Origin: Eledone cirrhosa
Taxonomy: Eukaryota
Assembly (NCBI GenBank): GCA_964016885.1
Contig: OZ024743.1
Span: 4,712,001 to 4,776,000, forward strand
Length of the DNA: 64,000 nt
Reading direction: 5' to 3'
Made by a program: the position numbers and the translations under genes
Notes under the pieces: model-generated
The model's input: the letters and a program-made list of their open reading frames with translations, nothing else
The model's database searches: none
Told to the model about the DNA's origin: nothing
In this document: in pieces, positions 1,982 to 59,474 of the stretch
How the letters are laid out: each line of letters starts with the position of its first letter
Numbering within the stretch: the stretch's first letter is position 1

Positions 1982-2175
1982 AAATGTATGACCCCGGCGG
2001 CAGAGCTCAAGCCGTTTCGACGGCTATTTCTGGACTGAGACCAGAAATAGCCGTCGAAACAGCTTGAGCTCTGCCGTTGGGGTCATACATTTTCCTATTA
2101 CCCACTCTACTACCCTAAGTATTGAGTACTCTGGTGCGTTATGGTCCATCTGGTTCCTTACCACAACTCCTTCGT
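1982..2175 (+). mobile_element. PLE-like fold-back fragment, family B (3' half of hammerhead plus tail)
   Basis: Hairpin arms 1982-2033 and 2041-2092; 2041-2175 is the reverse complement of about 30979-31112. Confidence 0.7.
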
Positions 2176-4346: not shown

Positions 4347-4864
4347 AGATAGATAGATAGATAGATAGATTTATCATTGCTATTGGTGAGTTATGTTACT
4401 CTAAAGTTTCACTTGCGCACTCACAAGATCGCCAGTCATGTAAGTACACAAGTGAAACTCCAGAGTTACAAGTCCCATCACTTAGCAATAATAAACGAAT
4501 ATTTAAAGTGTACTCCGGTATTAAGTTTTCATTCACGTACTCCCAAGGCAGATTATTTTATTTTACATTAAAAACACATTATATACGACAAAAAACGAAC
4601 ATTACACGAAATTCCATATTTACGAACGTAAACTATACAATTACCGATTTCCCAAGCACCCCTTATTCCCACCCCTCATATTATTTGGGATCCTCTCTAT
4701 ATCCACTACATGACTCTCTCCCATTATTCTTTCTCTGTATCTACAACCACCAAATTCTCCCTCTCTCTATATCTAACATACAAAACACTCCCAATCACCC
4801 TATTTATATCAATTTTCTCCAAACTCCCCTCCTCGCTATCTCCACTACACTCTCTCATAATCGC

Positions 4865-5871: not shown

Positions 5872-5923
5872 TATAGATAGGTAAATATACACGGGTGTGT
5901 ATGATTGTGTATAGAAGATTATG

Positions 5924-6306
5924 TTAATAAGAGGAATTCCAACTTTGTCTGATTTACTCGTTTTATTTACAATCCTTTAAAATATATAATGGTATTATAA
6001 TGAAATAGTATGATAGAATATTACATTCTAAGTGTTAATTGAACAAGTACTTTCATGCTTTCGCAATCTTCAGGTTCATAATATGTGGTGACAGTCGAGT
6101 TTGCAATTTTCAACTGTTGAAAATTGCAAACTCGACTGTCACCACATATTATGAACCTGAAGATTGCGAAAGCATGAAAGTACTTGTTCAATTAACACTT
6201 AGAATGTAATATTCTATCATACTATTTCATTATAATACCATTATATATTTTAAAGGATTGTAAATAAAACGAGTAAATCAGACAAAGTTGGAATTCCTCT
6301 TATTAA
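5924..6306. repeat. 383-bp palindrome (191-bp arms, 1-nt centre at 6115), PLE-like fold-back
   Basis: Arms read as reverse complements around CAAC-T-GTTG; (TA)n follows. Confidence 0.92.
6152..6190 (+). ncRNA. Minimal type I hammerhead ribozyme (mirror copy 6040-6078, minus)
   Basis: UGAAC-CUGAAGA-UUGC GAAA GCAU-GAAA-GUAC-UU^GUUCA: stem I UGAAC/GUUCA, canonical core, palindromic stem III AAGUACUU. Confidence 0.85.
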
Positions 6307-6620
6307 TATATATATATATATATTGGTAAACGGAAAAGAAAATGCTGACAAATTGTTCACAGTGAAAAATAGTTTACTTAGGAATAAGTGAGAATTAGTA
6401 ATAGTATTGGTTAGTATTCAGTTTTGGTTTTAAGTTTTACCGGTTGCGCATTTCTAATGCTTTTCAAAAATAATTTTGAGATAGAGCGTCCGTGATGTTT
6501 GCTCTGATATATTTATAGTTGGTGTGGGATGCTTAAAGCGTCTATATGCGGTAGGCCGTTTGAGCACTCGATGCTCTTACAGAGCAGAGTATAATATCAT
6601 ATAAGAAACGGATAATCAGT

Positions 6621-6887: not shown

Positions 6888-7329
6888 TATTTTCCGTTGT
6901 GTTGTAATATAAATATTACACACAGTAGGTTGACAGCTCACGTAGAGTTTGCTCGACGGTTCCAGTTGTAGTTCCAAAAGTAATTCGGAGAAAAGTAGAA
7001 AGATTTGAATGGATACAGTTTAGTTGAAAGGAATTTATTGACACGTGTTTCTATAACAGTTACATAACCTGAAAACAGCTGCTATCTACAAAGTTTTAGT
7101 TATGCAGACATTCAATATTTCAATGTTATTATTTACTGTCATTTCATCAGTAATATTATTGTCCTCAGTAATATTATTCTGATGAAATGACAGTAAATAA
7201 TAACATTGAAATATTGAATGTCTGCATAACTAAAACTTTGTAGATAGCAGCTGTTTTCAGGTTATGTAACTGTTATAGAAACACGTGTCAATAAATTCCT
7301 TTCAACTAAACTGTATCCATTCAAATCTT

Positions 7330-8638: not shown

Positions 8639-10325
8639 ATATATATATATATAAGGATTAAAATACTGGAGCGTGTTGGAGTTAAACACCCTCTTCGTAT
8701 TATAGAAATGACAGTAAAAGGTATAGCTCAATGTAATTAAACAGAGCCGAAGAATTATGAAAATAAAACAAAGAAGCCTTCAATACATCAAAAGTCTTTA
8801 TTAGCCAACAATGTTTCGTCCTATTAAGGACTCATCAGGGCAATTAAAACCACAAGAAGTACTATCGGCCAATACAAGCCGAAAACTCCGAAGAATATGG
8901 AGTGTACATACACTAAAGTATTGGAAGATTATGGGTAAAAATATATAATAAAAATCACTAAGGAGGTGGATAACATTTTGAACCATATTACAAATATAGT
9001 CCAAAGCAAAAAAAACCTAGAGCTAAACAAAGGTGGTTATATAGAGCGGGAACTATATATAATACAATATAATATAATATAATATACTTGTAACAATATT
9101 AAAATTAAAATTAAAAATTAAGATTAAAAGGCACAATATACATATGTATATATGTACGCACATATACATATACATATACATCAATACACATATCCATCAT
9201 TAACAGCACAAATTAAACCTTATTAAGAGTTTAAATATAAATAAGCATAATAGGAATAAAAATAATAATAATACGTATATCTAATATACATGAAGTAATG
9301 AAATGATTAAAAGTAACACATATAATATATAATAAACTATATAATTATATAATATATAATATAATATAATAGATAATCTCCGGTTAATTTACACAAACAA
9401 TATAGATGTCACAATAATACTATAATAATAATATAATAATATATAATATATAATGGCATGTAAGTTAACAAATCAATTCATATAGAGTTACAGAGTAGGT
9501 GAGAAAAAATATAAATTGTACAATACCCAAAATTATGATGGTACAAAAATATAAACATCTTACATGATATATAAAATTTAACATATCAAAATGGCTCATA
9601 AAATCATCGGTAAGTAATAAGGATCAATAGTACAATAACAACTTCAATATAAAATAATGAACATAATATAATATATAATTACTTATAAATACAAGGTTGG
9701 TAAACAGACATATATGTGGATGAGTGAATAAGGGCCAGACAGAAAATAGTATGCACAGTAGTATTAATAAATAAATAAATAAAATTAACCGGGAATTAAA
9801 AAAACAAAAACAAAAGTATTTACTTAGGTCTCACATGCAGTTAAGTAAAAACTTAGGAAACAACCCAGATAAATGACTCGAAAACCCTATCTGATAAATT
9901 AATATTGAAAATATTTAAAATACCTAATAAGGCAATACAATATTAGCTATGGTTTAAGTCATCAAAATTCCTAAACATTAATATTTCACTATAAATATAT
10001 ATATGAAGGAATGAAATATTCTACTATCATTTACATAACGATATCTAAAAAAAAACTGACTTAAGCAGAATTATGGTAGGCTAATAGGGACAGAAAAAAA
10101 GAAATGTATGAAGGATACAAAGGAGCATAAAATCACAATCAATATGCTCCTTTGTATCCTCCATACATTTCTTTTTTTCTGTCCCTATTAGCCTACCATA
10201 ATTATGCTTAAGTCAGTTTTTTTTTAGATATCGTTAGGTAAATGATAGTAGAATATTTCATTCCTTCATATATATATTTATAGTCTGTTTACCAACCTTG
10301 TATTTATAAGTAATTATATATTATA

Positions 10326-11690: not shown

Positions 11691-11735
11691 ATTGCCCTGA
11701 TGAGTCCTTAATAGGACGAAACATTGTTGGCTAAT
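11691..11735 (+). ncRNA. Minimal type I hammerhead ribozyme (mirror copy 8800-8844, minus)
   Basis: AUUGCC-CUGAUGA-GUCC UUAAUA GGAC-GAAA-CAUUG-UU^GGCUAAU; canonical core, perfect 4-bp stem II. Confidence 0.85.
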
Positions 11736-19632: not shown

Positions 19633-20470
19633 TTGACTGCCCCAAGCAGTATGTATATGTATAGGGGTAAAAACCGAGAGGTTATATCTATCGTAGGTAA
19701 CGGACTCAGTGCAAAGGACGAGTTCGCTACAGAGTTAGTTCCACAAAAATTTAGCAAACCATGCTCGAGGAAGCCGTTTCCCCGGCTGGATTTTCAACCC
19801 GTGTGTGGATGCTGTGAGAATGGAAATATATATGAGCTGACTGCATTCTGCCCTATTCAAAAACAGTGTAACACATCCGCAGCCGCCTATGAGGCTGAAG
19901 TTACATCCACTCGACCGAAAATATGTTGGTATGTCGGAGAGATGGTTTAAAGAACGCTTCCTTAACCATTAGACTACCTTTAGACAATCTAAAGGTAGTC
20001 AATCTAAACGATCGTCCACGAAGCTGGCAAGCCACGTATGGTCACTCAAGGATGCAGACGTGAATTTCTTCATTCAATGGAAATTTCTAGTCAAATCCAG
20101 GTCATGTGGAAATGGCACAGTGTCCTGTAAGCTGTCGTGAAGAAATTGTGAACGTTTTGCAGAGGTTACGTAATAGTACTTAACTTAATACTAGAACCGA
20201 TTTTTTTAATCGCTGTCCCCATGCTGCGAAGTGTCTGTTACGAAAGACCCAGGACAACCATAAGTCTAATCCGGAATGAACAAACTCAAACGAAAATTGT
20301 CCCACTGCAACAGTCTAATTTGAGTTGTCTCTCTTGATACCAAACTACCGCCATCTACCGCGCAGAACCCAGTCAGCTCACTTCCGTTCCCACTGTGGCC
20401 ATACATGAGTTGAAAATCCGACCGGTGAGACGTGCGTCTTCGAGTATCGTTTGGTAATTTGTTATGGAAC
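19633..20470 (+). pseudogene. Degenerate Penelope-like (Naiad-type) GIY-YIG 3' end with downstream HHR relic
   Basis: CGC..CPIQKQC...AYEAEV...YVG; after a frameshift FKERFLNH..TKLASHVWSLKD..IQWK..SCKL..LNTRTD..RCPH; U3A8 HHR-like fold at 20407-20441. Confidence 0.8.
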
Positions 20471-22838: not shown

Positions 22839-22938
22839 AAATAGTAAAAAGGAAAAAATACAGTAGAAAATGCTAGAGGGATTTTTTCAGTATAACATGA
22901 AAACATTTATTTATAAAGTAGGGATTTCCGCATTTAAT

Positions 22939-22977
22939 CGTGTACTGGTTTCAGCTTTATATGCTTTTTCAACGACG
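22939..22977 (-). ncRNA. Possible minimal hammerhead with U3A8 core
   Basis: CGUCG-UUGAAAA-AGC AUAUAAA GCU-GAAA-CCAG-UA^CACG; stem I needs one bulge; adjacent fold-back arms about 23038-23096 and 23116-23173. Confidence 0.45.
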
Positions 22978-24199
22978 GAAGTGTATAGTGCAGTTAAATT
23001 GCATATTTATACGAATAATGATAATAGAGAAAATTTCTTTTTAGTTTTTACATACATATTTAGAGAGAAAGTTTCATATTTTTGTCCGTAGTTTTGTTAG
23101 TATTGACCAACACTTCAAAACTACGGACAAAAATATGAACTTTCCTCTGTAAATATGTATGTAAAAACTAAAAATATGCAATTTAGATAGATAGATAGAC
23201 AAACTATATTTATATAGTTCAGAGATTTGATTATACAAAGTCTAAATAGTTTCAAGCTTGATGGAAAAATTTAAAAAAGAATTTCTTAATGTATAGGTAA
23301 GAATAAAGTTCAGATAAGAATAAAGTTAAGAGAAAGAGGATGCTGAAAGATTGAAGAAAGAAGTATGAAGATGGGTGAAGTGGGGGGGGGGGGGGGGGCG
23401 TAGATCTATTAATAATTGTTTCTACTTTTGGCACAAGGCCACCAATTACTTCAGTATATTACTGGTACTTTATTTTATCGACCCTGTAAGGATGAAAGGC
23501 AAAGTTAACCTTGGCGGAATCTGTACTCGGTCCATAAAGGGACGTAACTCTATGCTGGAAAGCATGGCGTCCGACTCGCTACTGAAACTGCGTGCGGGTG
23601 CGGAGCATTATGGAATGCGTGTGTTGTAATTGTTTGTATGTGTGTGTATAGAGTAGTGTATATATTGATTGTGATGGTGTATGTCTGGGCGTATTATGAG
23701 TGTGTTTGTGGTTTGGTTTATATGTGTGTTCTTTATGCATTGCCAACGGAAGTGTGTGTATGTGTGTACGTGTCTCTGTTCGGTTGCATGTGTGTCTGTT
23801 GTAGTTTCTGTGTTCTTACGAGCATGTGTATATGTGTGTCTGTTCGATTGCGTGTGTTTTTTTAGTGTCTGTGTGTAAATGTACGTTGTGTGTATGTAAG
23901 TGTATGTTGCATATGTTTGAGGGAGAGTATGTGTGTGTGTGTGTGTCTATGTATAAGTGTGTAAATGTTAAGTCTGACTCTTGTCAGACTGGCACTTAAC
24001 CCGATTTCATTTGTGTTAAGCAACTGAGAGTAGAACCCTACTGCTGGTACTTATGTTTCGGTGAGTGGACTGGAACCACGTAAATTGAAACTACGACTTA
24101 ACCATCGTAAAACTATGAACTTAACTACTAGGCTACGCACCTTCACATACACACATATTCATATACACACATATCCATACACACACACACGCTCACACG

Positions 24200-30863: not shown

Positions 30864-30864
30864 T

Positions 30865-30971
<107 letters not shown>

Positions 30972-30978
30972 TATATAT

Positions 30979-32150
30979 AACGAAGGAAATGTGGTAAGGA
31001 ACCAGGTGGACCATAACGCACCAAAGTACTCAATACTTGGGGTAGTAGAGTGGGTAATAGGAACCAGTAAGACCCCGACGGCTGAGCTCAAGCCGTTTCG
31101 ACGGCTAATTCTGAACTAAATGAAAATTTATCCTGGTATTTAAATAGCCGATCTTCTCAAGGGGTAATTCCATATATGGTCAAAGTGATTGTCAAAAGTC
31201 AGTAGTAATTCTGTGATTGCAAATTAGTAGGGGAGATGGTGGCTAAACCTGCCAGTAGGAGAAAGAGGGGAGGGGGTGGAGTAGACCCAATCAAGCGTTG
31301 GTAGTGCCAGCTACAGCTGGGCATGAGGTCAAAGAAGATACTGGGGAGGGGGAGGGGGAGGAAGTCGGAACGGTAGTTAGAACAATGAGGGGTAAAAATA
31401 TATATGAAAGAAAAAATACTGAGAGTGAATAAAAGCGAATAAGTGTAAAGAAAAAAGTAAAGCAAGTTCTACGACCTAAGTCTCAGGCTATTGTTAGGCT
31501 AGATAAATAAATAAATAAAGAAAGAAAGAAGTAAAGAAAGAAATAAAGAAATAACGAAATTAGTAAATGAACTAGGTGGGACGGAATAGGCAAGGACCCT
31601 TTTAAGAGGTATAAGTACGTAAATCATACGGTGACGGGTGAACAAATGGTGCCAAAATACTAAAGAGACTACCACGAAATAAATAATAAAGGTTTCTATC
31701 CCGGGCACAATGCCAGCAACCACCCAGTGCAGCAAAGTAAACTAGTACGAGATAATAATTCTGAGTCCCGAAAAAAATATATACTAATGCTAACTCTAAA
31801 AGGTCTTATACAAGCTACATGAAAGTTCGTACGAAGTAAAGGTAGAATACGGAAAAATAAATTCAGAATCCACCCCGCCCAAAAGAAAAGCGAAGAAAGA
31901 AAAACGGAAACGAGAAAATAAGGCATAAGTGCCACTAAGAAATATAGAAGGCACGGAAAATAGTGGGAGCGGTCGGAAAAAGGGGGCAAGTATCCGGGGT
32001 CTAAACCAGCTGCTATAAAAAGCGGAGTCCATATATGGAATTACCCCTTGAGAAGATCGGCTATTTAAATACCAGAATAAATTTTCATTTAGTCCAGAAT
32101 TAGCCGTCGAAACGGCTTGAGCTCAGCCGTCGGGGTCTTACTGGTTCCTA
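30979..32150. mobile_element. PLE-like fold-back, family B, with about 855-bp non-coding spacer
   Basis: Arms about 31058-31175 and 32032-32150, one-sided tail 30979-31057, (TA)n on both sides. Confidence 0.85.
32043..32136 (+). ncRNA. Type I hammerhead with U3-A8 covariant core (mirror copy 31072-31165, minus)
   Basis: ACCCC-UUGAGAA-GAUCGGCUA...UAGCCGUC-GAAA-CGGCU UGAGCUC AGCCG-UC^GGGGU; three GC-rich stems, GUC triplet. Confidence 0.85.
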
Positions 32151-32151
32151 A

Positions 32152-32175
<24 letters not shown>

Positions 32176-32183
<8 letters not shown>

Positions 32184-32236: not shown

Positions 32237-32342
32237 TATTTTTTACTTACTTAAATTTTCACTCTGGAGTGAAAATTTAAGTAAGTAAAAAATTTAAAAA
32301 AAAATTTTCTTTTTTTTTTATTTTCTTATTTTACGTCTTTTA
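32176..32342. repeat. Fold-back inverted repeat centred at 32265-32266
   Basis: TAAAAGACGTAAAATAAGAAAA...CACTC-TG-GAGTG...TTTTCTTATTTTACGTCTTTTA. Confidence 0.75.
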
Positions 32343-32462: not shown

Positions 32463-32493
<31 letters not shown>

Positions 32494-33114
32494 TATAAAA
32501 GAGAAAACACAGGTAAGCATTAAGAGAAGGATTTTATCCAGGTATTTACGACCGTTTCATTGGTAAGTGCAACCTTATATTGCTATACTGCAAATAGCAG
32601 CCACTCAATTATAATTGTTGTTCACAGTCCAAATTTTCAAAATAGTGAGTAAGTTACTCTTGAAATAATTCTTAATATATAGAGAAAAACATTTATTTGG
32701 AATTGTATTTACTAGTATAGAGAGAGAGGAATCAGAAGGTGAGGGGACAGGCGGAATAGTATAGAGAGAGAGGAAGGGGGAAGAGGTAGGAAGTAGAATG
32801 ACAAACTGAGAGGTGGAAGGATTCCTTGGTCAGTTTTGATAGCAGACTTCATGTCGTGGAATGTAGTGAGTTAAAGAGAATTAAATTGATCATAGTGGGA
32901 GGGATGGATAGAGAGGGAGAGAGAGGGGGGAGATATAAAGAGATAAATATATATACATATGTTGATTTAAAACTGCACTATCCACAAGTGTTTTTTAGCC
33001 TTCATATCATGTTCTCCTGTTTTATCTGATGAAAACAAATATTATTGCATGATGATGTTTGTTTTTGAAATGCGCATAATAAAATACATGGAACTCCTTT
33101 AACCATCTTTTGAT

Positions 33115-33392: not shown

Positions 33393-34250
33393 TTAAGGGT
33401 TCGATTTGTAGTGCGAAAACTTCTCTTTGAGTCTATGGTTACAATAAATTGATCTCTCGATTTTATTGTTGAGTAACTTATTCTTCGAACTTAAGATGTG
33501 GAACAGCTCAAGGTCGCATAATCGACAGCTTCTCATACCACTCTGATATGGAGGCGCGTTCGATAATTTTTTCCACTTCAGGGTGTATTGATGGTTACTT
33601 TCCCTCAGTTGCCAGGTCTTGTTTGCAAGGGTAGTTACATAACGGTGCTGGGAATGTTTCATTGCGTAACGGTGTGTATACCAACGGGCTTTAAATGTAT
33701 TCCCAGTCGCTCCGATGTAATACCATTTCTGGTTGTCTGATTCCACTGTGCATTGGTAAACCATGTTAGACTGCATACATTCATTATGTAATGGACAGGT
33801 TTCAGGTAGGTGGCAGTTACAGTTCTTGTCATGGGCAACTTTGGCATTATTTGTGGGCTGCGATGCCTGAACAAGTGTGTTACGTTTTGTTTGCCTATTA
33901 GTGGGTGGTTGTGTATTAGATATTCCGTTGTGTTCGGTGGTGATTGTATTGTTATTGTTGTAAATTTGTGTTTTGGTGTTGTTATGTATCTTTTTAGCGT
34001 TAAGCATCTTAATGTGTGCTTCTATATTTGGTGCCGTGGAGTAAGATAGTCTAATAGATTTAGTGTTAAGGATTTTGCTGTATCTATGTGAATCTGGAAA
34101 GTGCTTATTTATTATTCTAAAGAAGGTAGAGGGTAGGTTAGTACTAATAGAGGTGTTAAATATGGGGTTATACCAAATATATTTTCTACTGCGTGACTTG
34201 TTTGATTTCGATGTTGTATTTCTATTTGCCGTATACTTTGCAGTTCTATG
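33393..34250 (-). CDS. C-terminal part of PLE polyprotein: linker plus GIY-YIG endonuclease (Naiad-like)
   Basis: Frame is open from the inversion junction: RKYIWYNP..KHFP..LSYSTAPN..CNC..CPL..C..MVY..YIGAT..FKARWYTH..CRLC..E..LLN..CNH; RT domain absent. Confidence 0.88.
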   Translation of the reverse strand, partial: HRTAKYTANRNTTSKSNKSRSRKYIWYNPIFNTSISTNLPSTFFRIINKHFPDSHRYSKILNTKSIRLSYSTAPNIEAHIKMLNAKKIHNNTKTQIYNNNNTITTEHNGISNTQPPTNRQTKRNTLVQASQPTNNAKVAHDKNCNCHLPETCPLHNECMQSNMVYQCTVESDNQKWYYIGATGNTFKARWYTHRYAMKHSQHRYVTTLANKTWQLRESNHQYTLKWKKLSNAPPYQSGMRSCRLCDLELFHILSSKNKLLNNKIERSIYCNHRLKEKFSHYKSNP

Positions 34251-34315
34251 CGTAAATACAATTCCAAATAAATGTTTTTCTCTATATATTAAGAATTATT
34301 TTAAGAGTAACTTAC

Positions 34316-34417
34316 TATTTTGAAAATTTGGACTGTGAACAACAATTATAATTGAGTGGCTGCTATTTGCAGTATAGCAATATAAGGTTGCACTTACCAA
34401 TGAAACGGTCGTAAATA
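34316..34417 (+). ncRNA. Hammerhead with U3-A8 core and long stem II insert (mirror copy 32543-32644, minus, sense to the ORF)
   Basis: UAUU-UUGAAAA-UUUGG...(65 nt)...CCAAU-GAAA-CGGUCG-UA^AAUA. Confidence 0.62.
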
Positions 34418-34622
34418 CCTGGATAAAATCCTTCTCTTAATGCCTACCTGTGTTTTCTCTTTTATACTTTATACTCCAAGATTGAACGGAATTCTTACAA
34501 ACTTGTGGAGTTACCCCTAACCGTACGTTGAAACCATCCATGAAACTGGCTTTCTTAACCAAAAACTGGATCACAATAAGCAATTTTTTGCTTCTCTAAC
34601 TATATATATATATATATATATA

Positions 34623-38432: not shown

Positions 38433-40525
38433 ATGGCTACCAAAAAGAAATTTCATACGTCACTCCCACTCATTCCGTCTTCTTCTTCCTCAATCATCAC
38501 TACAGCAGAGAGAAGATTGTCTCTCTCCCTCCCTTCTTTAAATGTGTCTCTCTCCCTCCCTTCTCTTTCGCAAGCGACGAAAGAAAAGAAAAGTCTCGTG
38601 CAAAGCGTGCAAGGTTTCTCCACGACGACGACGACAGCGACGAAACAGGTGTGCGGGAAATACGAAAACCCAGTTCATTCGTCTGACGTCAGGAATAATA
38701 GCAGTAGCAGCCGTAATAACAACAGCAACAGTGACAATGAAAACAACAGTAGCAGCCGCAACAGCATCACCAGCAGCATAAACAACAACAGCATTAGCAG
38801 CAGCAACACCAACAACAACCACAGCAACAGCGGCGGAGGCAGTAGTCGTAGTACCTGCAGCAACAAAAGTACCAGCAGCTCTGACGACAACAACAACAGC
38901 AGAGAAAAACCAATCTCATTTGCAGGTATTGCGAAAAACTTGGAAACAATCCTCATAACAAATGAGGAATTAGAGGAAGCGAAGAAGATGGTGACAAAGA
39001 ACGGACACCGAGCAATCTGCAAGGCAGCGAAAAATTTTTTCGAAACCCAAGAGCACTGTACGGTCACGTACCGTACAGTAAGTACAAAATCCCGTAGGGT
39101 GGAAAGAGCCACAGAGGCCCAAATACAAAAAGCCTTGGGTCTGTGTGGCAGAGGAAAACGCACATCACCCGAGGCAAAAAATACGCCACCGTAGACGTAC
39201 TTTTTGCCACACCCCAGGAGGCAAAGGCCCAATCAGTAGTGACCCTAAGGAGCGAGGAAATGGTGTTGGTGCCCTCCTACTGCGGGCAAAAAATTGTGAG
39301 GGTCAAACTGACCCACGTCCCCCCCGGAATGACCCCTTCTTGGCTGGCCGCGTCTGTCCTCGTCGGAATCGAGGACAAAACAACTGTACTGCAAGTACGG
39401 AAAAAAGTAAGAGAAGATTGGGTCGGCTCCTCCATTGAGATGCTAATCCAAACCAACCAGGAGTGCATCGAAGCTATCCCGGATGTGATAGACTTCGATA
39501 ACGGCACTCAACTGCCCATAAGTGTTGAGGGCAAACGCCCGAAATGCTTTCGCTGTGGATCGAAGACTCACCTCAGGGCCTTCTGCAACGAGAAGACCCT
39601 GAGAAAGGAGAAAACCCCCCTCCTTCCGAATCCGGCTCCACGGCTACCAGCAACAGGACAAGCGGCAACCAGGAACGATAGGTCCGTGGCACCCATACCC
39701 ACTCCACGGAAATCAAAGACAGCAGCAGCAGTGGAAATATTAACAACAACAACAGCAATACCAAATGCAGCTGCAACAGAGACTCCAGTGCAAACATCAC
39801 CAACAACAACAAGTGAAAGAGTGGAGCTGGTACCCCTCCCCGACCTTACAGAATCAGACATGGAGTGTGAGGTGGGAGAGGGATGGCAAAAGGTCGCAAG
39901 AAGGCACAAACGCAGAAGCAGCGCATCGTCGCCTTTGAAAAGGGAGGAAAGAAATGAGAAAAGGGTAAAGTCTACTGCAAAGAGACCCACAGCAGCAACA
40001 CCACCAACACCATCACCACCCACACCAGCACCACCATCACCACCGGCGACAACCCCACCGCCAACAACACCTTCAACACCACCACCACAAGCACCAACAT
40101 CGCAAACACAACAACAAAACACACACACCCAGCAACAACGACAAGAAAATAGCAGAACCACACCCCACCCCCAGAAAAACAAATGCACGGCAATAAACAC
40201 ACACAACAAGAAACTAATGACTTACATAATTGAACACACAGACATTTCACAACAGGACTACATAATACCAGCACCAATCAAAACGCCAACTAACATAAGA
40301 CTGCTAAAAATAGCACAGAAACAATACACAAACATTAAAACGAAATTCCCCAACGCAGTTGGTGATTTCAGGGACCTAGGAGGAACCATCAATCGAAGAG
40401 TATATTCAGACATTCTCTTAGAAGAGCCGACGACCAGCCGAAGGGACGATTCAACGGTCCCTTCACCAGACGATCAAGTGAAAAGGGATGTAAAAACCAT
40501 CCCTCCTCTACCAAAAGTACGGTAA
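38433..40525 (+). CDS. ORF1 (gag-like, CCHC knuckle), split by one frameshift near 39143-39194
   Basis: MATKKKF start, N/S-rich tract; second frame has CFRCGSKTHLRAFC and a P/T-rich tail. Confidence 0.8.
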
Positions 40526-40560
40526 GTGGTCTTTCCCATCTTTTCCACTCTATTTTAAAC

Positions 40561-43500
40561 ATGACCTCACTCAGAATAGGCAGCATAAATGCGCGTGGCT
40601 TGGGGTCGTCATGGAAGCAGGGTCACCTGCTCAACGACCTCAGGTCACTAAACATAGATGTAGTGGCCATCAGCGAGACCAGAATCTCCGAAGCACGGGC
40701 CTTCGCACCGATCTTCGGCGGCTACGATGTGTACGCATCTCCCAGCCGTCCTGGATCGGGTGGAGGAGTTGCTGTGCTTTTTCGGAGAGGTTTGGATCTC
40801 GCCATACGGGCCATCTTCCTGGACCCAGAGGGTAAGCTGGTGGTGCTGGACGTGACCAGCGGAGACGGGCAAGCTTTCAGGCTAGTGGCCGTCTATGCCC
40901 CGACAGGAGCAGGGCGGCCTGATTTCTTCCGGCGTCTGGAGACCTTTCTTGGAACGTCGCGCTCTTTAGTGTTAGTGGGCGACTGGAACGGGATCTTAGA
41001 TGCACGCTGGGACTGTGTGGGATTAGCGGATAGGGGTGGAGGGTGCAAGAGCCTCACCAACCTGCTCAGGCGTTTTGAATTGTCTGACAGGTACCGATTG
41101 GATTTCCCGAATGTGCCAATGTGGACTTGGACAAACCGCATAGGGTCATCCAGATCATATCTAGATAGAGTATTTTGTAGGGAAATAGATAGGTCTAGCA
41201 TAGGCTGTCCACAATTCAAGATAGTCAGCTACACGGACCACAAATTCGTGATCTGTGTGCTTGACTTAGATAGGCTTCATAGACGAGGACCCGGCTACTG
41301 GAAGCTAAACGCGTCCTTACCAGCGCGCAAGGCCTACAGAGACCGGATTAGCGAACTAGTTAAACGGGCGTTGACGGGGGCCATCGTCAACAACAAGTGG
41401 TGGTTTGCTCTGAAAAGAGCGATTAGAATAGAATCGATTAGATTTAGTAAGGCTTTAGCAATAGAGAAAAATAGAGCAGAGGGAGAACTAGTTAGAAAAT
41501 TAGACGAGGCGCTTAGCAAAGGCATTGCGACCGACGTGCTTGCGGCGAAATTGGCCCTTGACCAATTCTTCAATGCAAAGCACGAAGGCTGCGTTGTCAG
41601 AGCAAGGGTGCGTGCTCTCAGACACGAGGGGACGAAAGCCGTTCAATGGGCCCGAGTGGCGGAGGCGCGTCGTGGCAACAAAGCCACGATCCGGTCTTTG
41701 GTGGACCACGACGGGCGCATGCTACTCGATCCCGGGCAAATGTGTGAAGCTTTTCAGCGACACTTCGCTCAGCTGTTCGGGGGCAGCGGTGGGCCGGGTA
41801 GAGGGATGGACTTTAGTGTCTACCTCGACGGACTGCCGCGGCTCTCGGCCACTGAGGCGAAGTGTTGCGAAAAGCCGATAACAGCCGCTGAAGTAAGGGA
41901 GGCAATGACTGGCTGCACAAGGGGTAAATCGCCTGGTTTGGATGGTCTGCCCTATGAACTTTACGTACAGATGCCAGACTTGTTCGGAGGCCTCTTGGCG
42001 GACGTCTACTGCAACTGGCAACAGAACGGGAGAATTCCCAGTTCTGTGAGCCGAGGAGCGGTGGCACTGCTGAGAAAGGATCCGAACAAGGGGGATAACA
42101 TAGACAATTTCCGGCCCATAACTCTGCTAAACACAGAGTTCAAGATTTTGGCCAAGGTGCTAGCAAAGAGGTTGGCGCTTGTCGTTGGTGGTCTGGTAGG
42201 AGAGGCGCAGACATGCGCCATTCCCGACAGATCCATACACGACAACCTCCACCTCATGCGATACATCGTAGAGAGGGTAGCTAAGGAACCTGGCACGGGT
42301 GGGTCCTTGATCAATTTAGATCAGTCGAAAGCTTTCGATAGGGTCGACCATCGTTACCTAGCGGCAGTCCTGAGGGCGGCTGGCTTTGGGCCCGTCTTCA
42401 GAGGCTGGATCGCTGCCATGCACAGCGACATCTGCTCTGTGGTGAGAGTGAACGGTCACCTGTCGGAACCGTTCAACATCATGCGCTCGGTCCGCCAAGG
42501 ATGTCCCCTCTCGTCCCTCTTGTACGTATTGACTCTCGAGCCATTACTGCACAAACTGGAGACGTTGAGGGGGGTCCCGCGCGAACTAGGATGCGGAAGA
42601 TCCGTATCAGCATATGCGGACGATGTCACCGTAGTGGTGTCGAACGCCAAACACATCGAGGCGATCGGCACTACACTAAGAGAATACGAAGCGGTGACAG
42701 GAGCAATGATCAACCAGGAAAAGTCAGTGGGCCTGCAGCTCGGCACCTGGAGAGGCAGGTCCATGCCGTCCAACAGCGTCGTCGGGCGCTGGACGGACGG
42801 ACCGGTTAAATTGCTAGGGGTCTGGTTCGGTCCGGACCTCCAGACGGACAAAAACTGGGACGAGGTGACGAGCAGGGTGGCTTCTCTCACCCAGAAATGG
42901 GCGGAGAGGAAGCTATCCCTGAAAGGTCGAGCGGAGGTGGCTAACGCGTACATCGCGTCTGTCATCTGCTACCGCCTAACCGTCGTACCTTGTCCTAAGC
43001 CTCGCCTGACTGCGCTGGAGCGTTTGCTCTTTCGCTTTTTGTGGAAGGGACGTGCTCCGATGGTCAGGCGGTCCATCTGTTGTCAACACCCGCTACGTGG
43101 AGGGCTGGGCATGCCGTGGCTGATGATGCGCAGGCACGCGCTCAGGCTACGACATCTCCACCTCTTCCTCGACGGTGATCAGGTGTGGTCGCCGTTTGCT
43201 AGACGCGTTTTTCCCCAGCTCGTTTCCTTGACGGAGCTGCAGTCCTGGGTCAAGCGAAGACTGAGAGGGAGCGCCTGGAGACTGGAATGTCTTCAGGCGC
43301 TCACAGCCCTCGACCAATCGGGCAATGTGATCGGTGGAAACTCCACCTCGGCGTTCTATAGAGGATTAGTGGAGGGGAAGAGCGACGACGTACTTGGGGA
43401 AACTCTAGGCGTCGACGAAAATCAACTAGCCAATCTCTTCGGAAGAACTTTCGGGCCAGGGCCTATGGACAACTTCCAGAAATCTCTGGCCTGGCAGTGC

Positions 43501-43980
43501 TACCGAGGAGCCTTGCCAGTTCGGGATAAACTCTACAGGCATGGAGGTGCCGTCAGCCGGGCATGTCCGAGATGCGCGCAGGGCGACGAAACCGTCCTGC
43601 ACGCACTCGTCCAGTGTCCGAAAATTGCTGACTTGTGGGTTTATGTCGAACACCTGCTGTCGCGTTTAGGACGGATCCAGCTATCATCTGAGTCTATCGT
43701 GAGGATTGCCCCGCCCTCCTCCTTTAGCCGGGAAGGGCAGGCAGTTTTTATCTGTCTGGTGGCCATGGCGAAAGAGATAGTATGGTGGACACGTTTGAAA
43801 GGGCTGAAGACGAGCACTTACCTCTTCGGTGATGCTCTGATTGACTTTTTCAAATTTCATTTGAAAAGGAAAATCAGAGTAGAGAAGGAAGTGCTCTCTT
43901 CCCAGCATTTTGTTGAAAGATGGGTGAGAGAAGCAAGAATGGCCCGAGTGAATGGGCCGACTCTGAGTATATATCTGTAA
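40561..43980 (+). CDS. ORF2: APE endonuclease, reverse transcriptase and C-terminal zinc finger; 1139 aa, uninterrupted
   Basis: SINARGL, SET, VYAP, GDWN, YLDR, TDH (APE); KSPGLDG, NFRPITLLN, KAFDRV, RQGCPLS, AYADD (RT); CPRC..HALVQC. Confidence 0.96.
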   Translation: MTSLRIGSINARGLGSSWKQGHLLNDLRSLNIDVVAISETRISEARAFAPIFGGYDVYASPSRPGSGGGVAVLFRRGLDLAIRAIFLDPEGKLVVLDVTSGDGQAFRLVAVYAPTGAGRPDFFRRLETFLGTSRSLVLVGDWNGILDARWDCVGLADRGGGCKSLTNLLRRFELSDRYRLDFPNVPMWTWTNRIGSSRSYLDRVFCREIDRSSIGCPQFKIVSYTDHKFVICVLDLDRLHRRGPGYWKLNASLPARKAYRDRISELVKRALTGAIVNNKWWFALKRAIRIESIRFSKALAIEKNRAEGELVRKLDEALSKGIATDVLAAKLALDQFFNAKHEGCVVRARVRALRHEGTKAVQWARVAEARRGNKATIRSLVDHDGRMLLDPGQMCEAFQRHFAQLFGGSGGPGRGMDFSVYLDGLPRLSATEAKCCEKPITAAEVREAMTGCTRGKSPGLDGLPYELYVQMPDLFGGLLADVYCNWQQNGRIPSSVSRGAVALLRKDPNKGDNIDNFRPITLLNTEFKILAKVLAKRLALVVGGLVGEAQTCAIPDRSIHDNLHLMRYIVERVAKEPGTGGSLINLDQSKAFDRVDHRYLAAVLRAAGFGPVFRGWIAAMHSDICSVVRVNGHLSEPFNIMRSVRQGCPLSSLLYVLTLEPLLHKLETLRGVPRELGCGRSVSAYADDVTVVVSNAKHIEAIGTTLREYEAVTGAMINQEKSVGLQLGTWRGRSMPSNSVVGRWTDGPVKLLGVWFGPDLQTDKNWDEVTSRVASLTQKWAERKLSLKGRAEVANAYIASVICYRLTVVPCPKPRLTALERLLFRFLWKGRAPMVRRSICCQHPLRGGLGMPWLMMRRHALRLRHLHLFLDGDQVWSPFARRVFPQLVSLTELQSWVKRRLRGSAWRLECLQALTALDQSGNVIGGNSTSAFYRGLVEGKSDDVLGETLGVDENQLANLFGRTFGPGPMDNFQKSLAWQCYRGALPVRDKLYRHGGAVSRACPRCAQGDETVLHALVQCPKIADLWVYVEHLLSRLGRIQLSSESIVRIAPPSSFSREGQAVFICLVAMAKEIVWWTRLKGLKTSTYLFGDALIDFFKFHLKRKIRVEKEVLSSQHFVERWVREARMARVNGPTLSIYL

Positions 43981-44287: not shown

Positions 44288-46695
44288 AGTTGCATTTATC
44301 TTGCTTTATGTTCATACGAGTTATCACCAAGTCACAACCAGTGACCTCAAGAGACAACAAGGTCCGCCATGTTCAAGAAAGAACATACATATTCACACAT
44401 GCATCTTTAGTGTTTAGACTTGTGACGTACTTATATTGACAGAATCTTCCTTAGTATATGGGCAGTTCCCATTAATACTATCTTTTGTATTTCTCCTATA
44501 CGCGGGTTTCCTGGGATTTGCGATATGTAATCATTAGACCCCTTAGGTATCATTTCCAGAGCGCCTACAACCACTGGTATTGTTTTAGTTCTCAATTTCC
44601 ACATTTTTCCAATTTCTATCTCCAGGTGCTTATACTTGCTCAATTTTTCAAATGTTTTTATAGCTACATTCTTGTCTATTGGAACAGACATATCAATTAG
44701 CAGGCATACCCTCTTTTGAAAGTCTTTCAATATTATATCAGGTCTGTTTGCATCTATTTTTCGGTCTGTTTGGATGCTAAAGTTCCACAAGATTGAGATG
44801 TGATCTTTTTCAAGTATGGGAGGTGGTTGACGCTCCCACCAATTCTTTTGATGGGGCAGGTCAAAATGCTTACACATTATCCAATGTATGTATTGTGCAG
44901 CTCTGTCATGCCTGTTTAGGTATTCGGTTGGAGCTATAGGACTGCACATTGAAATTATATGGTCAATGGTCTCTGGTTGTTTTTTACATACACGGCATAA
45001 TGGGTTGCATCCATTTTTCATTATGTTGGCTTGGTAATTTTTTGTTGGCAGACACTGATCTTGTGCTGATATAATCAGTCCTTCAGTCTCCGATTTCAGT
45101 CCAGAGGATGCCAAACATTGATGGGTTAAAGTTTTGTCAACATCAGGATTGTTAGCTCTTTCTGGGTATTTTCCATACAGAGGCTTTTCTTGCCATTTCT
45201 TAGCCAGTTTCTGTAGCAGTTCTTTCTTTGCAGTTACTTTTACCTGCTTTGCTTTTTCTGTGTTTTTCATTTCAGCAGTAAATGGGACTTCTGAAATTTG
45301 TAGTCCATTACTGTATCTTTGTGCATCTTTTGTAATGGAGTATGATCTTTTGATGCTTTCGTGTTTCAAAACGAGTTTGATCATCCAATCATGTGATTCC
45401 CTTAGATATGTAGATAATCCAATTGTTGCAGTTTTCAACGCAATGTCTAACTGGATTAACCCACGTCCTCCTTCTTTCCTAGGGAGATATATTCAATCTG
45501 TATCTGCCTTAGGGTGATGCATTCTGTGCATGTTAAGAATTTTCTCATTTTTGTATCGTGCCTACGGATCTCTGTGCTTGACCAGTTGATGACATTGTAA
45601 CTGTAGGTTACTACTGGTATGGCAAGCGTGTTTATGGCATCGATCCTATTCCTTGCATTCAATTCCGTTCTTAAGATTGCTCTGACTCTGCGGTAACATT
45701 CCTTCCCTATCCTTTCCCTCATTGTCGAGTGCTTGATTCCGTCTCCTTCACAAACACCTAGATATTTGTAAGTTTCCTCTTGATCAAGTTCTCTTATCAC
45801 GTTCCCCCGATCAAGATTAATGTCTGAACTTTTCAGCAGCTTTCCTCAGGTGAGCGTTGCTTTGGCGCATTTATCTAGTCCAAACTCCATTTTAATGTCA
45901 TCACTGAACTGCTCCACGGTGGATCCTTACAATTGTTCATCATTTTTTGCAAATAGTTTCAGGTCATCCATATAGAACAAGTGATTAATGATTTTGTCAT
46001 AGACTTTATATCCATGTTTTGTTTCATTGAGCATTTTACTTAATGGTATAAGCGCGATGCAGAATAAAAGCGGTGATAATGAGTCACCCTGAAAAATTCC
46101 ACAATTAATATTAACTTCTCCAGCTTCCAGTGATTTTTTTTCACTATTCAAAAGGAGTGTCGTTTTCCATGTCTTCATACTGAATGACAAAAACCTCCTG
46201 ACAACGGGAGATATTTTGAAAATCTCTAAACATTTTTCAATCCGACTGTGTGGCAAACTATCGAATGCTTTTATATAATCTATCCAAGCAATTGATAGAA
46301 TTTTGTGTCTATTATGACAATCTTCCAGTATCATTTTGTTAACCAAAAGCTGAGCCTCGTTTACACCCCTTCTGCTCATTTGTTATCAGGTGGTTATATG
46401 TATATTCAGTTAGGACTGATGTTAACATTTTATACATTGTGGTCAAGCAAGCTATCAGTCTGTAATTTTGGAGATTGTTTGTCTCATTATTCTTCGGAAG
46501 CAGGAATGTAATGCCGTTAACTAGCCATGATGGTATCTTTTCTGGCTCGTTAATATATTTCATTGTAAAGTTGGGCTAACAGCTCATGAGACTCTGTGAA
46601 GGCATTTATCCAAAAATTTGGTATTTTGTCTTTTCCTGGGAATTTCTATTTGCTGGTTTTTCTAAGAGCCAAACGCAACTGTTCAACTGTTCAAC

Positions 46696-46697
<2 letters not shown>
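44287..46697 (-). mobile_element. R4/Dong-clade RLE LINE, 5'-truncated and frameshifted (copy 1)
   Basis: RT motifs FQGDSLSP and YMDDLK (45927-46379); CRVC..HIISMC, RHD, RPDI and K..KY RLE motifs (44431-45438); (TAA)n at both ends. Confidence 0.92.
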
Positions 46698-46730
<33 letters not shown>

Positions 46731-46732
<2 letters not shown>

Positions 46733-49472
46733 ATCTTTGAGTCTCAGTCATTGATGTTAGTTAACTGGAAAGTTTGTTGAAATGAATATCAAGCCACTAC
46801 CTGCAGCCTCAGATATTCAGGACGTATTCAGGACGTTCCCAGCAAGCATGCCTTTTGAAGTGTTCCAAAAAGCGGAGCGGGGCCAATTTTCTTTAACCAT
46901 CCCTGGAAACTTTTTGAGATAGTACCTAGTGCGCCTATGACAATCGGGACCACTTTGACTTCATGGCAGTTCCAAATCCTTTTTACCTCCCACTTTAAGT
47001 CCTGGTATCGGTTAATTTTCTCCCTCTCCTTCTCTTGCACTCTCATGTCGAATGGGCAGGCCATATCCACAATCAGGCACGATCTTTTTTCCTTGTCCAA
47101 AACCACCAGGTCAGGTCTATTGTGTTCCAGTTTCTTGTCCGTCTGTATCCTAAAATCCCACAGCACCTTCACCTGATCGTTTTCTATCACCGACTCTGGC
47201 GTATGCTCATACCACTTCTCGGAATGTGGTAAATTGTTTACTTTGCATAGGTGCCAGTGGATCACCCTGCCCATCACATCATGTCTCCAGCCCTTATAGT
47301 GAGTCTGGGCTAGGTGTTTACTCTCGGATACAATGTGAGCCACAGTCTCCTCTCTCTCTCCACAAATCCTGCACAGTGGGCTAGCCTCCTCCTTGTAAAT
47401 ATGGTGTTTCAGCCACTTCGTTTTGAGGGCCTGCTCTTGCGCAGCCATTAACATTCCTTCTGTAGCCTTTTTAAGGTCTCCTCTTTTCAACCAGTTCCAT
47501 GTCTGTGGATCTCTGAATTCGGTTTTCTCAAAGAAGGTACTATGAAGGGATTTTTCATGAAGGTTGCTCTTTCTCCTTGATGTTATTTCCTCCTTGGACA
47601 TCCCCTGGTCTATTGTCCTATCCTTCAGTACAATTCTGAGCATTGGCTCCTTACTATCGGTCACGTATTTGTGTAGGTTGTTTTTCTCCATCTGAACACA
47701 GTCCTCTATGCTGATAAGACCTCTTACACCTTCATATCTCCTTAAGTAGAGTCTATCGACATCACCCCTCTTGTGGAACATGTTGTAGATAGTCAATAGC
47801 TTCCTAGTCTTCCTATCCATTTCTTTTTGTTCAGCAACATTCCTTCTCAGAATTCCCGCACTGTACCTAATAATAGACACAGCTCGGGAATTTACTGCAC
47901 TTATGGCATTCCTACTGTTCAGATGTGACTTTAATACGCTCCTTATTCTCCGAATGTATTCAGATTTTATCAATTCCTTCATTTTTTTGTTCTTGATGTC
48001 ATCAGCCTCCAGAATACCCAAATACTTGTATCCTTTTTCAGTGTCAATTTCCTTTATCATCTCACCTGTTGGTACCTGGATTCCGTTGCTTCTGCTCAAT
48101 TTACCCCCTCTTCATCACAAGGACTCCACACTTACTAATACCAAATTGCATAGATATATCATTGCTGAAAATACGGACAGTGTCAACAAGCACATCCAAC
48201 TCCTTCTCACTCTTCCCGAAGAGCTTAAGATCGTCCATGAAGAGGAGGTGATTGATGGTAAGCTCTCCCTTTCCCAACTTGTATCCTGCTCTCACTTTTC
48301 GCAGTATAATAGTCAGGGGCATCAGGGCAAGGACAAACAACAGAGGGGACAGACTATCTCCCTGGAAGATACCTCTTTTGATCTTCACGCCTCCGAAGGA
48401 TTCTCCAGCTGATGTTAACTCTGTTTTCCAGAACTTCATACTTTTGCTCAACAACTGTCTGATGTTATCTGCCACCTTGAAGATCTCTAGGCTTTTGGTG
48501 ACCCAAGAATAAGGCACCATGTCAAATACCTCTTTGTAGTCTATCCATCCCATAGCAAGACCAGTGTGTCTCCTCATTACCATCTTATCAATAAGTAACT
48601 GGTCCTTTGTACCACGGGACTTCTTTCGGCATCCGTTCTGTTCGTCCGGTAACAAGTTGTTTGTGTGGAGATGATGGTAGATTTCCTCAGACACAATGCT
48701 TGTCAACAGTTTCCACATTACGGACAGATATGTGATAGGTCTATAGTTGGTAACATCATTACTCTTGATTCGGTCTTTCATTACCAGGACTGTGGTACCC
48801 TTTGTCAACCACTCTGGTACCTCACCCGACATCAAGCAGTCATTGAACATGGTTGTCAGTTTCGGGTGGAAGGATGTTATATTTTTAATCCAATACCCCT
48901 GCACACCATCTGGGCCTGGTGATTTCCAGTTGGTTAGTTTTTTGGCCTGCCCCTTAAGCGTTTCAACTGTGATACTCAAATCAGTTTGTTGGTGTGCCTG
49001 TTCACTGATCTCCTTCTGTACTGTCTCAATCCACACTGCTTGGTCATTATGTTTAACATCCTGCTCCCATATTCCACTCCAGAATGTCTTAGTTTGTTCC
49101 GCCTCAGGGATCAAGTCGTTGCCTCTTTCTTTCCCTTCAAGCTGTCCAAACAACAACATCTGGTTGTTGTCAAACATGCGGTTCTGTCTATACTGCCTGA
49201 CTCTGCTCTCCTATCGCCTAATTTTTGCACTCTTTGCTACAAGGCGTTGCTTCAGTTCCTCTATGATAATATTTAGCCTTTTCCTCCTAGTTTTGTACTT
49301 TATTTCCAGTCTATTTTTAGTGTCTATGTTTTTTAGTGTCCCATTCAGTAGGGACTCAAGCTTTCCAATGTCATTTCTCATTTCCTTGATTTGACCATTC
49401 AGTCGTTTCTTCCACCAAGGTTCTGATCTTTCTTCTTTGTTGTTTCCTCTCGCTTTTATGCCAAGTAATTTC
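46731..49472 (-). mobile_element. R4/Dong-clade RLE LINE, different subfamily (copy 2)
   Basis: NWKSPGPDG, FQGDSLSP and FMDDLK (48101-49177); CRIC..H, RHD, RPDL and K..RY (46828-48099); (TAA)n at both ends. Confidence 0.92.
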
Positions 49473-57191: not shown

Positions 57192-57918
57192 ATAGAAAGA
57201 TTTGAATGGATACAGTTTAGTTGAAAGGAATTTATTGACACGTGTTTCTATAACAGTTACATAACCTAAAACAGCTGCTATCTACAAACTTTTAGTTATG
57301 CAGACATTCAATATTTCAATGTTATTATTTACTGTCATTTCATCAGAATAATATTACTGAGGACCTATTTAGTTTTTATAGAGAATATTAGGAGGGAGAG
57401 GTGAAGTTGTTAGAAGAATAGTTGAAGGAGTGGTTTTTCGATAGCAGTGAGAATTCTTGGTGGCAGTGAGTAATTAGATTCCCATCTGTTGTTTTGACAT
57501 TTTTTATAGAATATATTATTGGTTATTTTTCTAAATCTATAGAAGGATTAGAGATAGTAAAGATATGCGTGGTTGGTTTTGTGTTTGCACTTAATTAACA
57601 TTCAGACTTAAATTTTTCTTTCAAGTGTACGTATCCTTTCACCCACGCATTCACAAACAAATATATTTGCACACCTCTACAAAATACATATACTCACAAT
57701 TCACATATTCATACTTACATATATATACACATGCATACACATATATATACACACATGTATTCATGTACATACATACGCGCTCATGTGTATACATTTTCAT
57801 ACTCAACTTATCTTTATATACACACGTATAGACACACACATATATACATACATACTCTAGTCCATGTGTACACACATACACATACATACACATCCATATA
57901 CACATATATACATACATA

Positions 57919-57976
<58 letters not shown>

Positions 57977-58581
57977 CACTTTAATACATGAATACACTTA
58001 CATCTAACTATACACATCAAACATATATATATATTTACTTATTTATATACATTTTCACATATATATACATACTTATGGACGTTTTTAGACACATTCATTA
58101 TCGCATATTTGTACCTATTCTCATCAGCATATCTTTCCATTATTAGTGTGGTAATTTAAGGTTATTAATATATGTTGAGAAGAGATTGTTTTTATATTTT
58201 TCTAACATAATCACACACAAGAAGAAACTGCTGAATAACAGAATTGAACGAACATTATTCTGCCGTCACAGAACTAAAACCCTTTTTTCCCACTACAAGC
58301 CGAATATTACATAAAAGAGGGACATCCCCCAACTATATAAACCTTAATCTAGTTAGAAAAATATAAAAACAATCTCTTCTCAACATATATTAATAACCTT
58401 AAATTACCACACTAATAATGGAAAGATATGCTGATGAGAATAGGTACAAATATGCGATAATGAATGTGTCTAAAAACGTCCATAAGTATGTATATATATG
58501 TGAAAATGTATATAGATAAGTAAATATATATATATGTTTGATGTGTATAGTTAGATGTAAGTGTATTCATGTATTAAAGTG

Positions 58582-58635
<54 letters not shown>

Positions 58636-59474
58636 TATGTATGTATATATGTGTATATGGATGTGTATGTATGTGTATGTGTGTACACATGGACTAGAGT
58701 ATGTATGTATATATGTGTGTGTCTATACGTGTGTATATAAAGATAAGTTGAGTATGAAAATGTATACACATGAGCGCGTATGTATGTACATGAATACATG
58801 TGTGTATATATATGTGTATGCATGTGTATATATATGTAAGTATGAATATGTGAATTGTGAGTATATGTATTTTGTAGAGGTGTGCAAATATATTTGTTTG
58901 TGAATGCGTGGGTGAAAGGATACGTACACTTGAAAGAAAAATTTAAGTCTGAATGTTAATTAAGTGCAAACACAAAACCAACCACGCATATCTTTACTAT
59001 CTCTAATCCTTCTATAGATTTAGAAAAATAACCAATAATATATTCTATAAAAAATGTCAAAACAACAGATGGGAATCTAATTACTCACTGCCACCAAGAA
59101 TTCTCACTGCTATCGAAAAACCACTCCTTCAACTATTCTTCTAACAACTTCACCCCTCCCTCCTAATATTCTCTATAAAAACTAAATAGGTCCTCAGTAA
59201 TATTATTCTGATGAAATGACAGTAAATAATAACATTGAAATATTGAATGTCTGCATAACTAAAAGTTTGTAGATAGCAGCTGTTTTAGGTTATGTAACTG
59301 TTATAGAAACACGTGTCAATAAATTCCTTTCAACTAAACTATATCCATTCAAATCTTTCTATTTTTCTCCGGATTACTTTTGGAACTACAACTGGAACCG
59401 TCGAGCAAACTCTACGTGAGCTGATAATCTACTGTGTGTAATATTTATATTACAACACAACGGAAAATACTGTA
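57192..59474 (+). mobile_element. PLE fold-back with about 1-kb inverted arms, family E
   Basis: Arms 57192-58206 and 58352-59362 nearly identical, 145-bp spacer, tail to 59474, (TA)n flanks; HHR-like core at 59208. Confidence 0.9.
58207..58314 (+). pseudogene. Last 35 codons of a Naiad-like PLE ORF
   Basis: IITHKKKLLNNRIERTLFCRHRTKTLFSHYKPNIT* aligns with ILSSKNKLLNNKIERSIYCNHRLKEKFSHYKSNP* of the 33393 ORF. Confidence 0.85.

Follow-up and report, generated by a model that had tools for sequence, protein, structure and literature searches.

U3-A8 hammerhead cores in Penelope-like terminal repeats of Eledone cirrhosa

Does a hammerhead core in which the C3-G8 pair has been exchanged for U3-A8 belong to a ribozyme that works, and how often has such an exchange occurred within one genome? 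The question is raised by a 64,000-nucleotide stretch of the genome of Eledone cirrhosa (contig OZ024743.1, positions 4,712,001 to 4,776,000, hereafter the window), in which the original prediction had placed four heptamers of this kind, TTGAGAA at 32048-32054 and TTGAAAA at 34320, 20410 and 22966-22972 (minus), all of which are present where they were placed. That U3-A8 is a functional natural replacement of C3-G8, which was asserted at the same time, is already in print (PMC3088659, PMC4209133). Perreault et al. (2011) report several natural examples of covariation from C3-G8 to U3-A8, and cite earlier work in which U3-A8 hammerheads cut in vitro (PMC3088659), while Cervera and De la Pena (2014) describe, in the Schistosoma mansoni Cercyon element, about 1,300 U3-A8 matches that a first descriptor had missed, beside about 2,000 C3-G8 matches (PMC4209133). 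Both the variant and its undercounting by CUGANGA descriptors are therefore published and our finding refines a known system, its own contribution being covariation at the level of families, in several independent lineages, and a natural matched pair.

The focal hammerhead and its element

The focal motif, which belongs to a family that we call F1, folds as a type I hammerhead (32043..32136, + strand) with (i) a helix I formed by 32043-32047 and 32132-32136, (ii) the core UUGAGAA (TTGAGAA, U3 to A9) at 32048-32054, (iii) a helix II formed by 32055-32063 and 32101-32108, followed by the GAAA box at 32109-32112, and (iv) a helix III that runs to 32130, with a GUC (GTC) triplet at 32129-32131 and a predicted cut after C32131. 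The three strong stems and the GUC site that had been proposed are borne out by folding, since the hammerhead is the minimum-energy fold of 32043-32136 (-23.1 kcal/mol), with pair probabilities between 0.60 and 0.98 (0.71-0.98 for helix I, 0.77-0.96 for helix II and 0.60-0.96 for helix III). In this predicted fold, three helices surround the core, which is open at helix I, and G10.1-C11.1 is present; a U is bulged after two pairs of helix II, loop II is long and loop III contains the palindrome GAGCUC. The 5' core box reads U4 G5 A6 N7 A9 with a Watson-Crick 3-8 pair, and the GAAA box and an NUH cleavage triplet (GUC) are both in place, as expected of a hammerhead. Among copies from the genome, U3-A8 is found in 47 of 50, and all four bases occur at N7.

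Folding of the 121-nt region around the motif is no better than that of shuffles (z -0.90), and no contact between loop I and loop II was identified by secondary-structure folding. The Rfam covariance models give no hammerhead match on 31950-32150 at E values up to 10; over the window, Hammerhead_1 is among the matches listed, at 8800-8844 and 11691-11735, and many miRNA matches in the same scan were discarded as microsatellite noise. The heptamer TTGANAA occurs 70 times in the window versus 66 in local shuffles, which is chance level, so the motif alone is no proof and it is structure and family context that bear the case.

A second fold of the + strand copy lies just 1.2 kcal/mol above the active one. 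In it, the 3' strand of helix II pairs with the 5' strand of helix III (32102-32117) in a 6-bp hairpin that holds GAAA in its loop, and in the near-identical copy on the minus strand (31072-31165) this alternative is the minimum-energy fold.

That minus-strand copy (31058-31179), absent from the original prediction, is 98% identical to the reverse of 32029..32150 (+), which is an inverted 5' copy of the 3' end of an element read on the minus strand. The distal 3' UTR of this 5'-truncated Hydra-type Penelope-like element (31180..32030, minus) is followed by the sense hammerhead (31072..31165, minus, core at 31160-31154) and by a 3' tail (30980..31057, minus) that leads into a (TA)n tract at 30864-30979; another (TA)n tract (32152-32178 in the repeat table) lies directly beyond the inverted 5' copy. 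Since the reading strand is minus, the element's own hammerhead is 31072-31165 and the focal one is its inverted 5' duplicate, of a kind typical of such Penelope insertions (PMC8557442). The + strand copy would be a by-product of insertion, and the element's own transcript would bear the minus-strand copy.

Coding sequence is found in other F1 copies, seven of which (e.g. L002, L004, L021, L029 and L209) have the end of a GIY-YIG ORF 1.1-1.3 kb ahead of the core. At L030, translation across a frameshift yields an RT motif (YRDD), a thumb region and then an endonuclease, recognised through its motifs and its likeness to Hydra-1_Amil. A CxCX5C linker and CxxC and CxH around E and N, with no CCHH, were found both in F1 (L005) and in the ORF of a second family in the window (F2, below), and a (TA)n target, a hammerhead-bearing terminal repeat and an inverted 5' copy were all found for the F1 element. 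Assignment to the Hydra clade is by these motifs, defined as in section 11 of PMC8557442, and by element layout, the tree presented below containing no reference proteins. What our elements have in common with the Hydra-clade elements of Craig et al. (2021) is a C-terminal GIY-YIG domain, the CxCX5C linker, CxxC/CxH around E and N, (TA)n targets, the inverted 5' copy and, in many rows of the published table, U-U at the base of helix II (PMC8557442). The core sets them apart, since 26 of 26 Hydra rows in File S2 of that study read CUGANGA, whereas four Hydra-type families here have U3-A8.

A search of the genome (3.0 Gb, 1,796 contigs) returned 787 F1 candidates, the best 40 of which are all 97-100% identical. 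Together with the many near-identical copies of F2, this indicates that the families were amplified with U3-A8 already present. Two other readings of the locus were rejected. Non-LTR retrozymes are short non-coding tandem repeats with a hammerhead in each (10.64898/2026.07.22.740005), whereas F1 copies are dispersed and lie behind a coding endonuclease and a long UTR. A TATA-like hexamer at about 32015 belongs to the reverse strand of the F1 3' UTR and is therefore not taken as a promoter.

The window as a whole is AT-rich (~35% GC), with many microsatellites. It contains eleven C3-G8 hammerhead-like motifs from several families (at 7179, 8838, 11697, 14381, 25578, 30362, 33026, 51387, 57346, 59208 and 62911), a non-LTR element with a 1,204-aa open endonuclease-RT frame (40366-43980, +), a fragment 74% identical to that frame (2450-4390, minus) and further RT fragments (44431-49210, minus). 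Near-perfect long inverted repeats or palindromes lie at 57192-59362, 5920-6310 and 32245-32286; several of them flank hammerhead motifs and are probably inverted Penelope ends.

Other U3-A8 families and a census of the core pair

The three remaining sites belong to three separate repeat families and, taken as single copies, are weaker than the focal one. The F2 hammerhead (34316..34417, +) has U3-A8, a long helix II and a predicted cut after A34413. It sits in an inverted 5' copy (repeat 34252-34468), the sense copy of the terminal repeat being at 32492..32712 (minus, core start 32640) behind a 5'-truncated ORF (33393..34295, minus) with an RT thumb remnant, a CxCX5C linker and a Hydra-type GIY-YIG domain (CxxC..E..N..CxH), for which Pfam gives no GIY-YIG match. 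In the 34320 copy, U is opposed to U at 10.1/11.1, helix I has 4 bp and helix III is short and nearly palindromic, each of which is the majority state of F2. U-U at 10.1/11.1 is also common in F3 and in clusters 2, 4, 6, 16 and 20 of our sample; it is frequent in C3G8 and U3A8 families alike, and among the published Hydra rows too, and so is not linked to the exchange in the core. The F3 copy (20396..20456, +) has U3-A8 at 20410-20416 but reads GAGA where the GAAA box should be, a loss that has likely inactivated it; a second decayed copy has its core at 19797 (minus), and F3 is linked to a Hydra-type endonuclease at L063, L075 and L079. F4 is a minimal hammerhead (22915..22985, minus) with U3-A8 at 22972-22966, a bulged helix I and, in the window copy, a loop III altered from the family palindrome. 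At L109, this family lies behind an endonuclease with CX2-5CxxC plus CCHH, which, following PMC8557442 as for the position numbering, we take to be of Neptune type.

Genome-wide, U3-A8 is present in 37/37 F2, 32/32 F3 and 27/31 F4 copies, a conservation inflated by the fact that these are mostly best matches to the query (the best 40 were scored of 1,497, 140 and 1,119 candidates, respectively). The families had been described as unrelated, which does not hold since all four are Penelope-like terminal-repeat hammerheads (three Hydra-type and one Neptune-type). The argument that four families in one window speak for function survives in part: U3-A8 is indeed fixed in several families, but the 20410 copy has no GAAA and inserted copies decay. 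Whereas the stable helix III of F1 would permit cleavage as a monomer, F2-F4 would need dimers formed via a palindromic helix III, as described for short palindromic helices III in metazoan Penelope hammerheads (PMC4209133).

How common each state of the 3-8 pair is was counted in 160 evenly spaced 10-kb stretches (1.6 Mb), using a descriptor that leaves positions 3 and 8 free (16 combinations) and a minimum score of 10. The matches were 123 C3G8, 25 U3A8, 6 U3G8, 4 C3A8 and 27 other, against shuffle expectations of 0.6, 4.6, 1.0, 0.6 and 21.4, the U3A8 figure including false matches from three local tandem arrays. These arrays (L174, L211 and L219; 29 matches at a score of at least 9; clusters 7, 9 and 13) were rejected as local tandem repeats and excluded from all family and homology counts. 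In a recount by homology, which used 49 family representatives out of at least 103 clusters (single-copy matches became representatives only with a credible-looking fold), 250 copies, inverted duplicates included, comprise 194 C3G8, 38 U3A8, 7 U3G8, 4 C3A8 and 7 other. Counted per family and locus, C3G8 makes up 124 and U3A8 32 of 160. Among the 37 families present at two loci or more, 26 have a C3G8 majority, 9 a U3A8 majority and 2 are tied, while U3G8 or C3A8 is the majority in none. The C3G8 sister of F3 and a U3A8 motif at L172, both found by eye, are outside the 250-copy and 37-family counts.

Single-change cores, which the original prediction took to argue against function should they be as common as U3A8, are rarer (11 versus 38 of the 250 copies), and occur as minority copies within families or as two singletons. 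Mismatches between copies amount to 17/465 at position 3 and 10/465 at position 8, with 3-17 at the other fixed core positions and 78 at N7. The expectation that CUGANGA-only searches undercount ribozymes is confirmed as well, since 38 of the 232 paired cores (16%, about 1 in 6) would go undetected by such a search. Two oddities were noted in the sample. At L275 (cluster 21), two C3-U8 copies at one locus, against two C3G8 copies elsewhere, probably represent a single decayed insertion together with its inverted copy. A Hydra-type family (L254 +, L269 + and L177 -) has a hammerhead-like CAGAAGA (U4A) in 3/3 copies, ~1 kb past the endonuclease.

One origin or several

Whether U3-A8 was gained once or repeatedly was addressed with a 136-column tree of 20 endonuclease domains of Hydra type, built from decayed single copies and with the root not inferred, onto which the state of the hammerhead was placed; several of the links between endonuclease and hammerhead rest on a single copy or were read by eye. 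With all links, U3-A8 needs 5 changes, 4 of which are forced by starred branches, and a single U3-A8 clade is rejected (p-AU 1e-18, with row L079 partly misaligned). Without L079, and with no label given to five weaker links (those read by eye or spanning a (TA)n run), 4 changes are needed, 3 of which are forced, and p-AU is 0.0013. Starred branches provide only 3 independent contrasts (sign test p 0.25), so a Fisher p of 1.4e-8 computed over families overstates the case. U3-A8 is thus scattered on the endonuclease tree, with at least three changes among Hydra families, and is found on Neptune-type elements too (F4, F5 and L172), which may share a single origin. From the majority here and from published tables, we infer that C3G8 is the ancestral state.

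The most instructive comparison is between F3 and the L165 family (1,698 candidates, of which the best 40 were scored), whose endonucleases group at 97/98. The two hammerheads can be aligned over their full length, where 68 of 125 majority columns agree, and differ in the core, which is UUGAAAA in F3 and CUGAGGA in the L165 family. C3G8 is present in 19 of 20 fetched L165-family copies when the alignment is read by eye (by script pattern, 16, with 3 unmatched and 1 A3).

Could U3-A8 have arisen once or twice and then have spread from one family to another through template switching at the 3' end? Modules might be exchanged in this way since Penelope insertions are nested and rearranged, the tree was built from the endonuclease rather than from the hammerhead, and F4, F5, L172 and family 75 have a GAAACCGGU motif in common that may stem from one event. 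We nevertheless find this distinctly improbable, because the F3 hammerhead and its flanks align with those of its C3G8 sister, with the same grouping of the endonucleases (97/98), and because the hammerheads of F1, F2 and F3 have helices of different sizes and do not cluster by sequence. Our literature search, which covered few subscription papers, found no report of repeated U3-A8/C3-G8 switching among sister families; the supplements of PMC4209133 and PMC3088659, which were outside this search, may list more U3-A8 cases.

Comparison with the best-studied relatives helps to delimit what is particular to the present case. With Cercyon, F1 has in common the U3-A8 core, the location in a terminal repeat and being missed by a CUGANGA descriptor, but a stable helix III of 5-6 bp and a long loop II make F1 resemble the monomeric fungal type of the same paper, its element belongs to a different clade and we saw no mapping of the variant on a family tree in PMC4209133. 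Whereas the U3-A8 examples that we saw in PMC3088659 are scattered across life, those described here are in sister families inside one genome. The PAc element of Anolis (Poseidon clade) likewise has a Penelope terminal-repeat hammerhead, cutting by which depends on the 3-8 pair, with partial rescue by C3G/G8C; it differs in its C3-G8 core, in having no stable helix III noted in that account and in being protein-assisted (PMC11167929). As for Penelope hammerheads in general, their function is called unclear in PMC8557442, and the main text of PMC13282606 does not mention hammerheads.

Function of the 3-8 pair

We consider it probable that the focal motif is a U3-A8 hammerhead of the terminal repeat of a Hydra-clade Penelope-like element, predicted to cut at C32131, and that the 3-8 pair has been switched repeatedly under selection for Watson-Crick pairing. 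The 3-8 pair forms in the active hammerhead fold (PMC3884650) and the chemistry would be that of an ordinary hammerhead, with U3-A8 replacing C3-G8; that the variant core is functional is suggested by covariation at the level of families. Selection would act in transposition, where masters with an unpaired core would found no families, and inserted copies would decay neutrally. In this AT-rich genome, the likely route would be by two transitions (C to U and G to A), with U-G or C-A as a transient intermediate. Loss of CpG at C7-G8 is one candidate first step, which we offer as a suggestion; it would fit the CUGACAA of a decayed copy at L197, whose family reads CUGACGA, and the UUGACAA of divergent F1 copies (L177 and L229).

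Two readings in which the core pair is not kept for cutting have to be weighed against this one. That U3-A8 families are simply decayed hammerheads, which drifted towards AT through common transitions and no longer work, needs no selection and draws on a window of ~35% GC in which TTGANAA is frequent by chance, and on copies in which the single changes C3U and G8A do appear. We find it extremely unlikely, since under drift single changes should reach fixation more often than double ones, which none of the 37 families shows, and since F1 and F2 have hundreds of candidates, the top copies of which are 97-99% identical. Retention of the pair for a protein-bound fold, for packaging or for priming, with cutting weak or incidental, is a more serious competitor, if still an unlikely one. 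In the lizard Penelope, catalytic mutants were still able to insert in vitro, so that cleavage was dispensable for this step, none of the reads had its end at the cut site, and cleavage required protein (PMC11167929); metazoan minimal hammerheads are poor cutters in vitro (PMC4209133); and a U4A core is present in 3/3 copies of the Hydra family mentioned above. Copy ends, examined for clustering at the cut site as a possible trace of cutting in vivo, point the same way, as 5' ends in the 1.6 Mb are not enriched there for F1 (3/79) or for the 25 other families listed. What speaks for catalysis is that the 3-8 pair belongs to the catalytically active core (PMC3884650) and that GAAA and NUH are retained in all 49 family representatives, though the descriptor required both.

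The 5' ends of F1 copies are clustered elsewhere. The 1.6 Mb contain 79 matches to the 3' end of F1, 49 of which begin within helix II or loop II; the core half is present in only 9 of the 79 and absent in 70. Most are two inverted arms with varied junctions, such as the foldback insertion at 1986..2175, in which the 3' half of the F1 hammerhead occurs twice, in inverted orientation, and the core half is missing. Similar foldbacks joined in loop II were seen at L133, L158, L168, L172, L214, L218, L233, L245, L255, L261 and other loci, and contigs from two runs (of unrecorded kind) have a similar depth step there, with many distinct joints. Our guess is that reverse transcription might stall at the 6-bp hairpin that traps GAAA, giving truncations in loop II. 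In cluster 4, a C3G8 family, 16 of 54 copies begin either within the core or at the 5' border of helix I, a possible second truncation hotspot.

A bolder version of the preferred reading, namely that the 3-8 pair flipped between C-G and U-A at least four times with no half-way family, and that F1 is in addition a two-state switch whose alternative hairpin halts reverse transcription and spawns plentiful foldbacks lacking the core, is one that we hold only tentatively and with more doubt than belief. If true, at least four flips without half-way families would be direct evolutionary evidence that Penelope transposition needs catalysis in vivo. In practical terms, about one intact core in six in our sample escapes a CUGANGA-only descriptor, and the focal copy escapes Rfam. 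The existence of sister families unlike each other in both bases of the tertiary core pair, together with the lack of fixed intermediates, argues for an active-site fold that is selected in transposition, and F3 and its C3G8 sister offer a natural matched pair for the measurement of rates.
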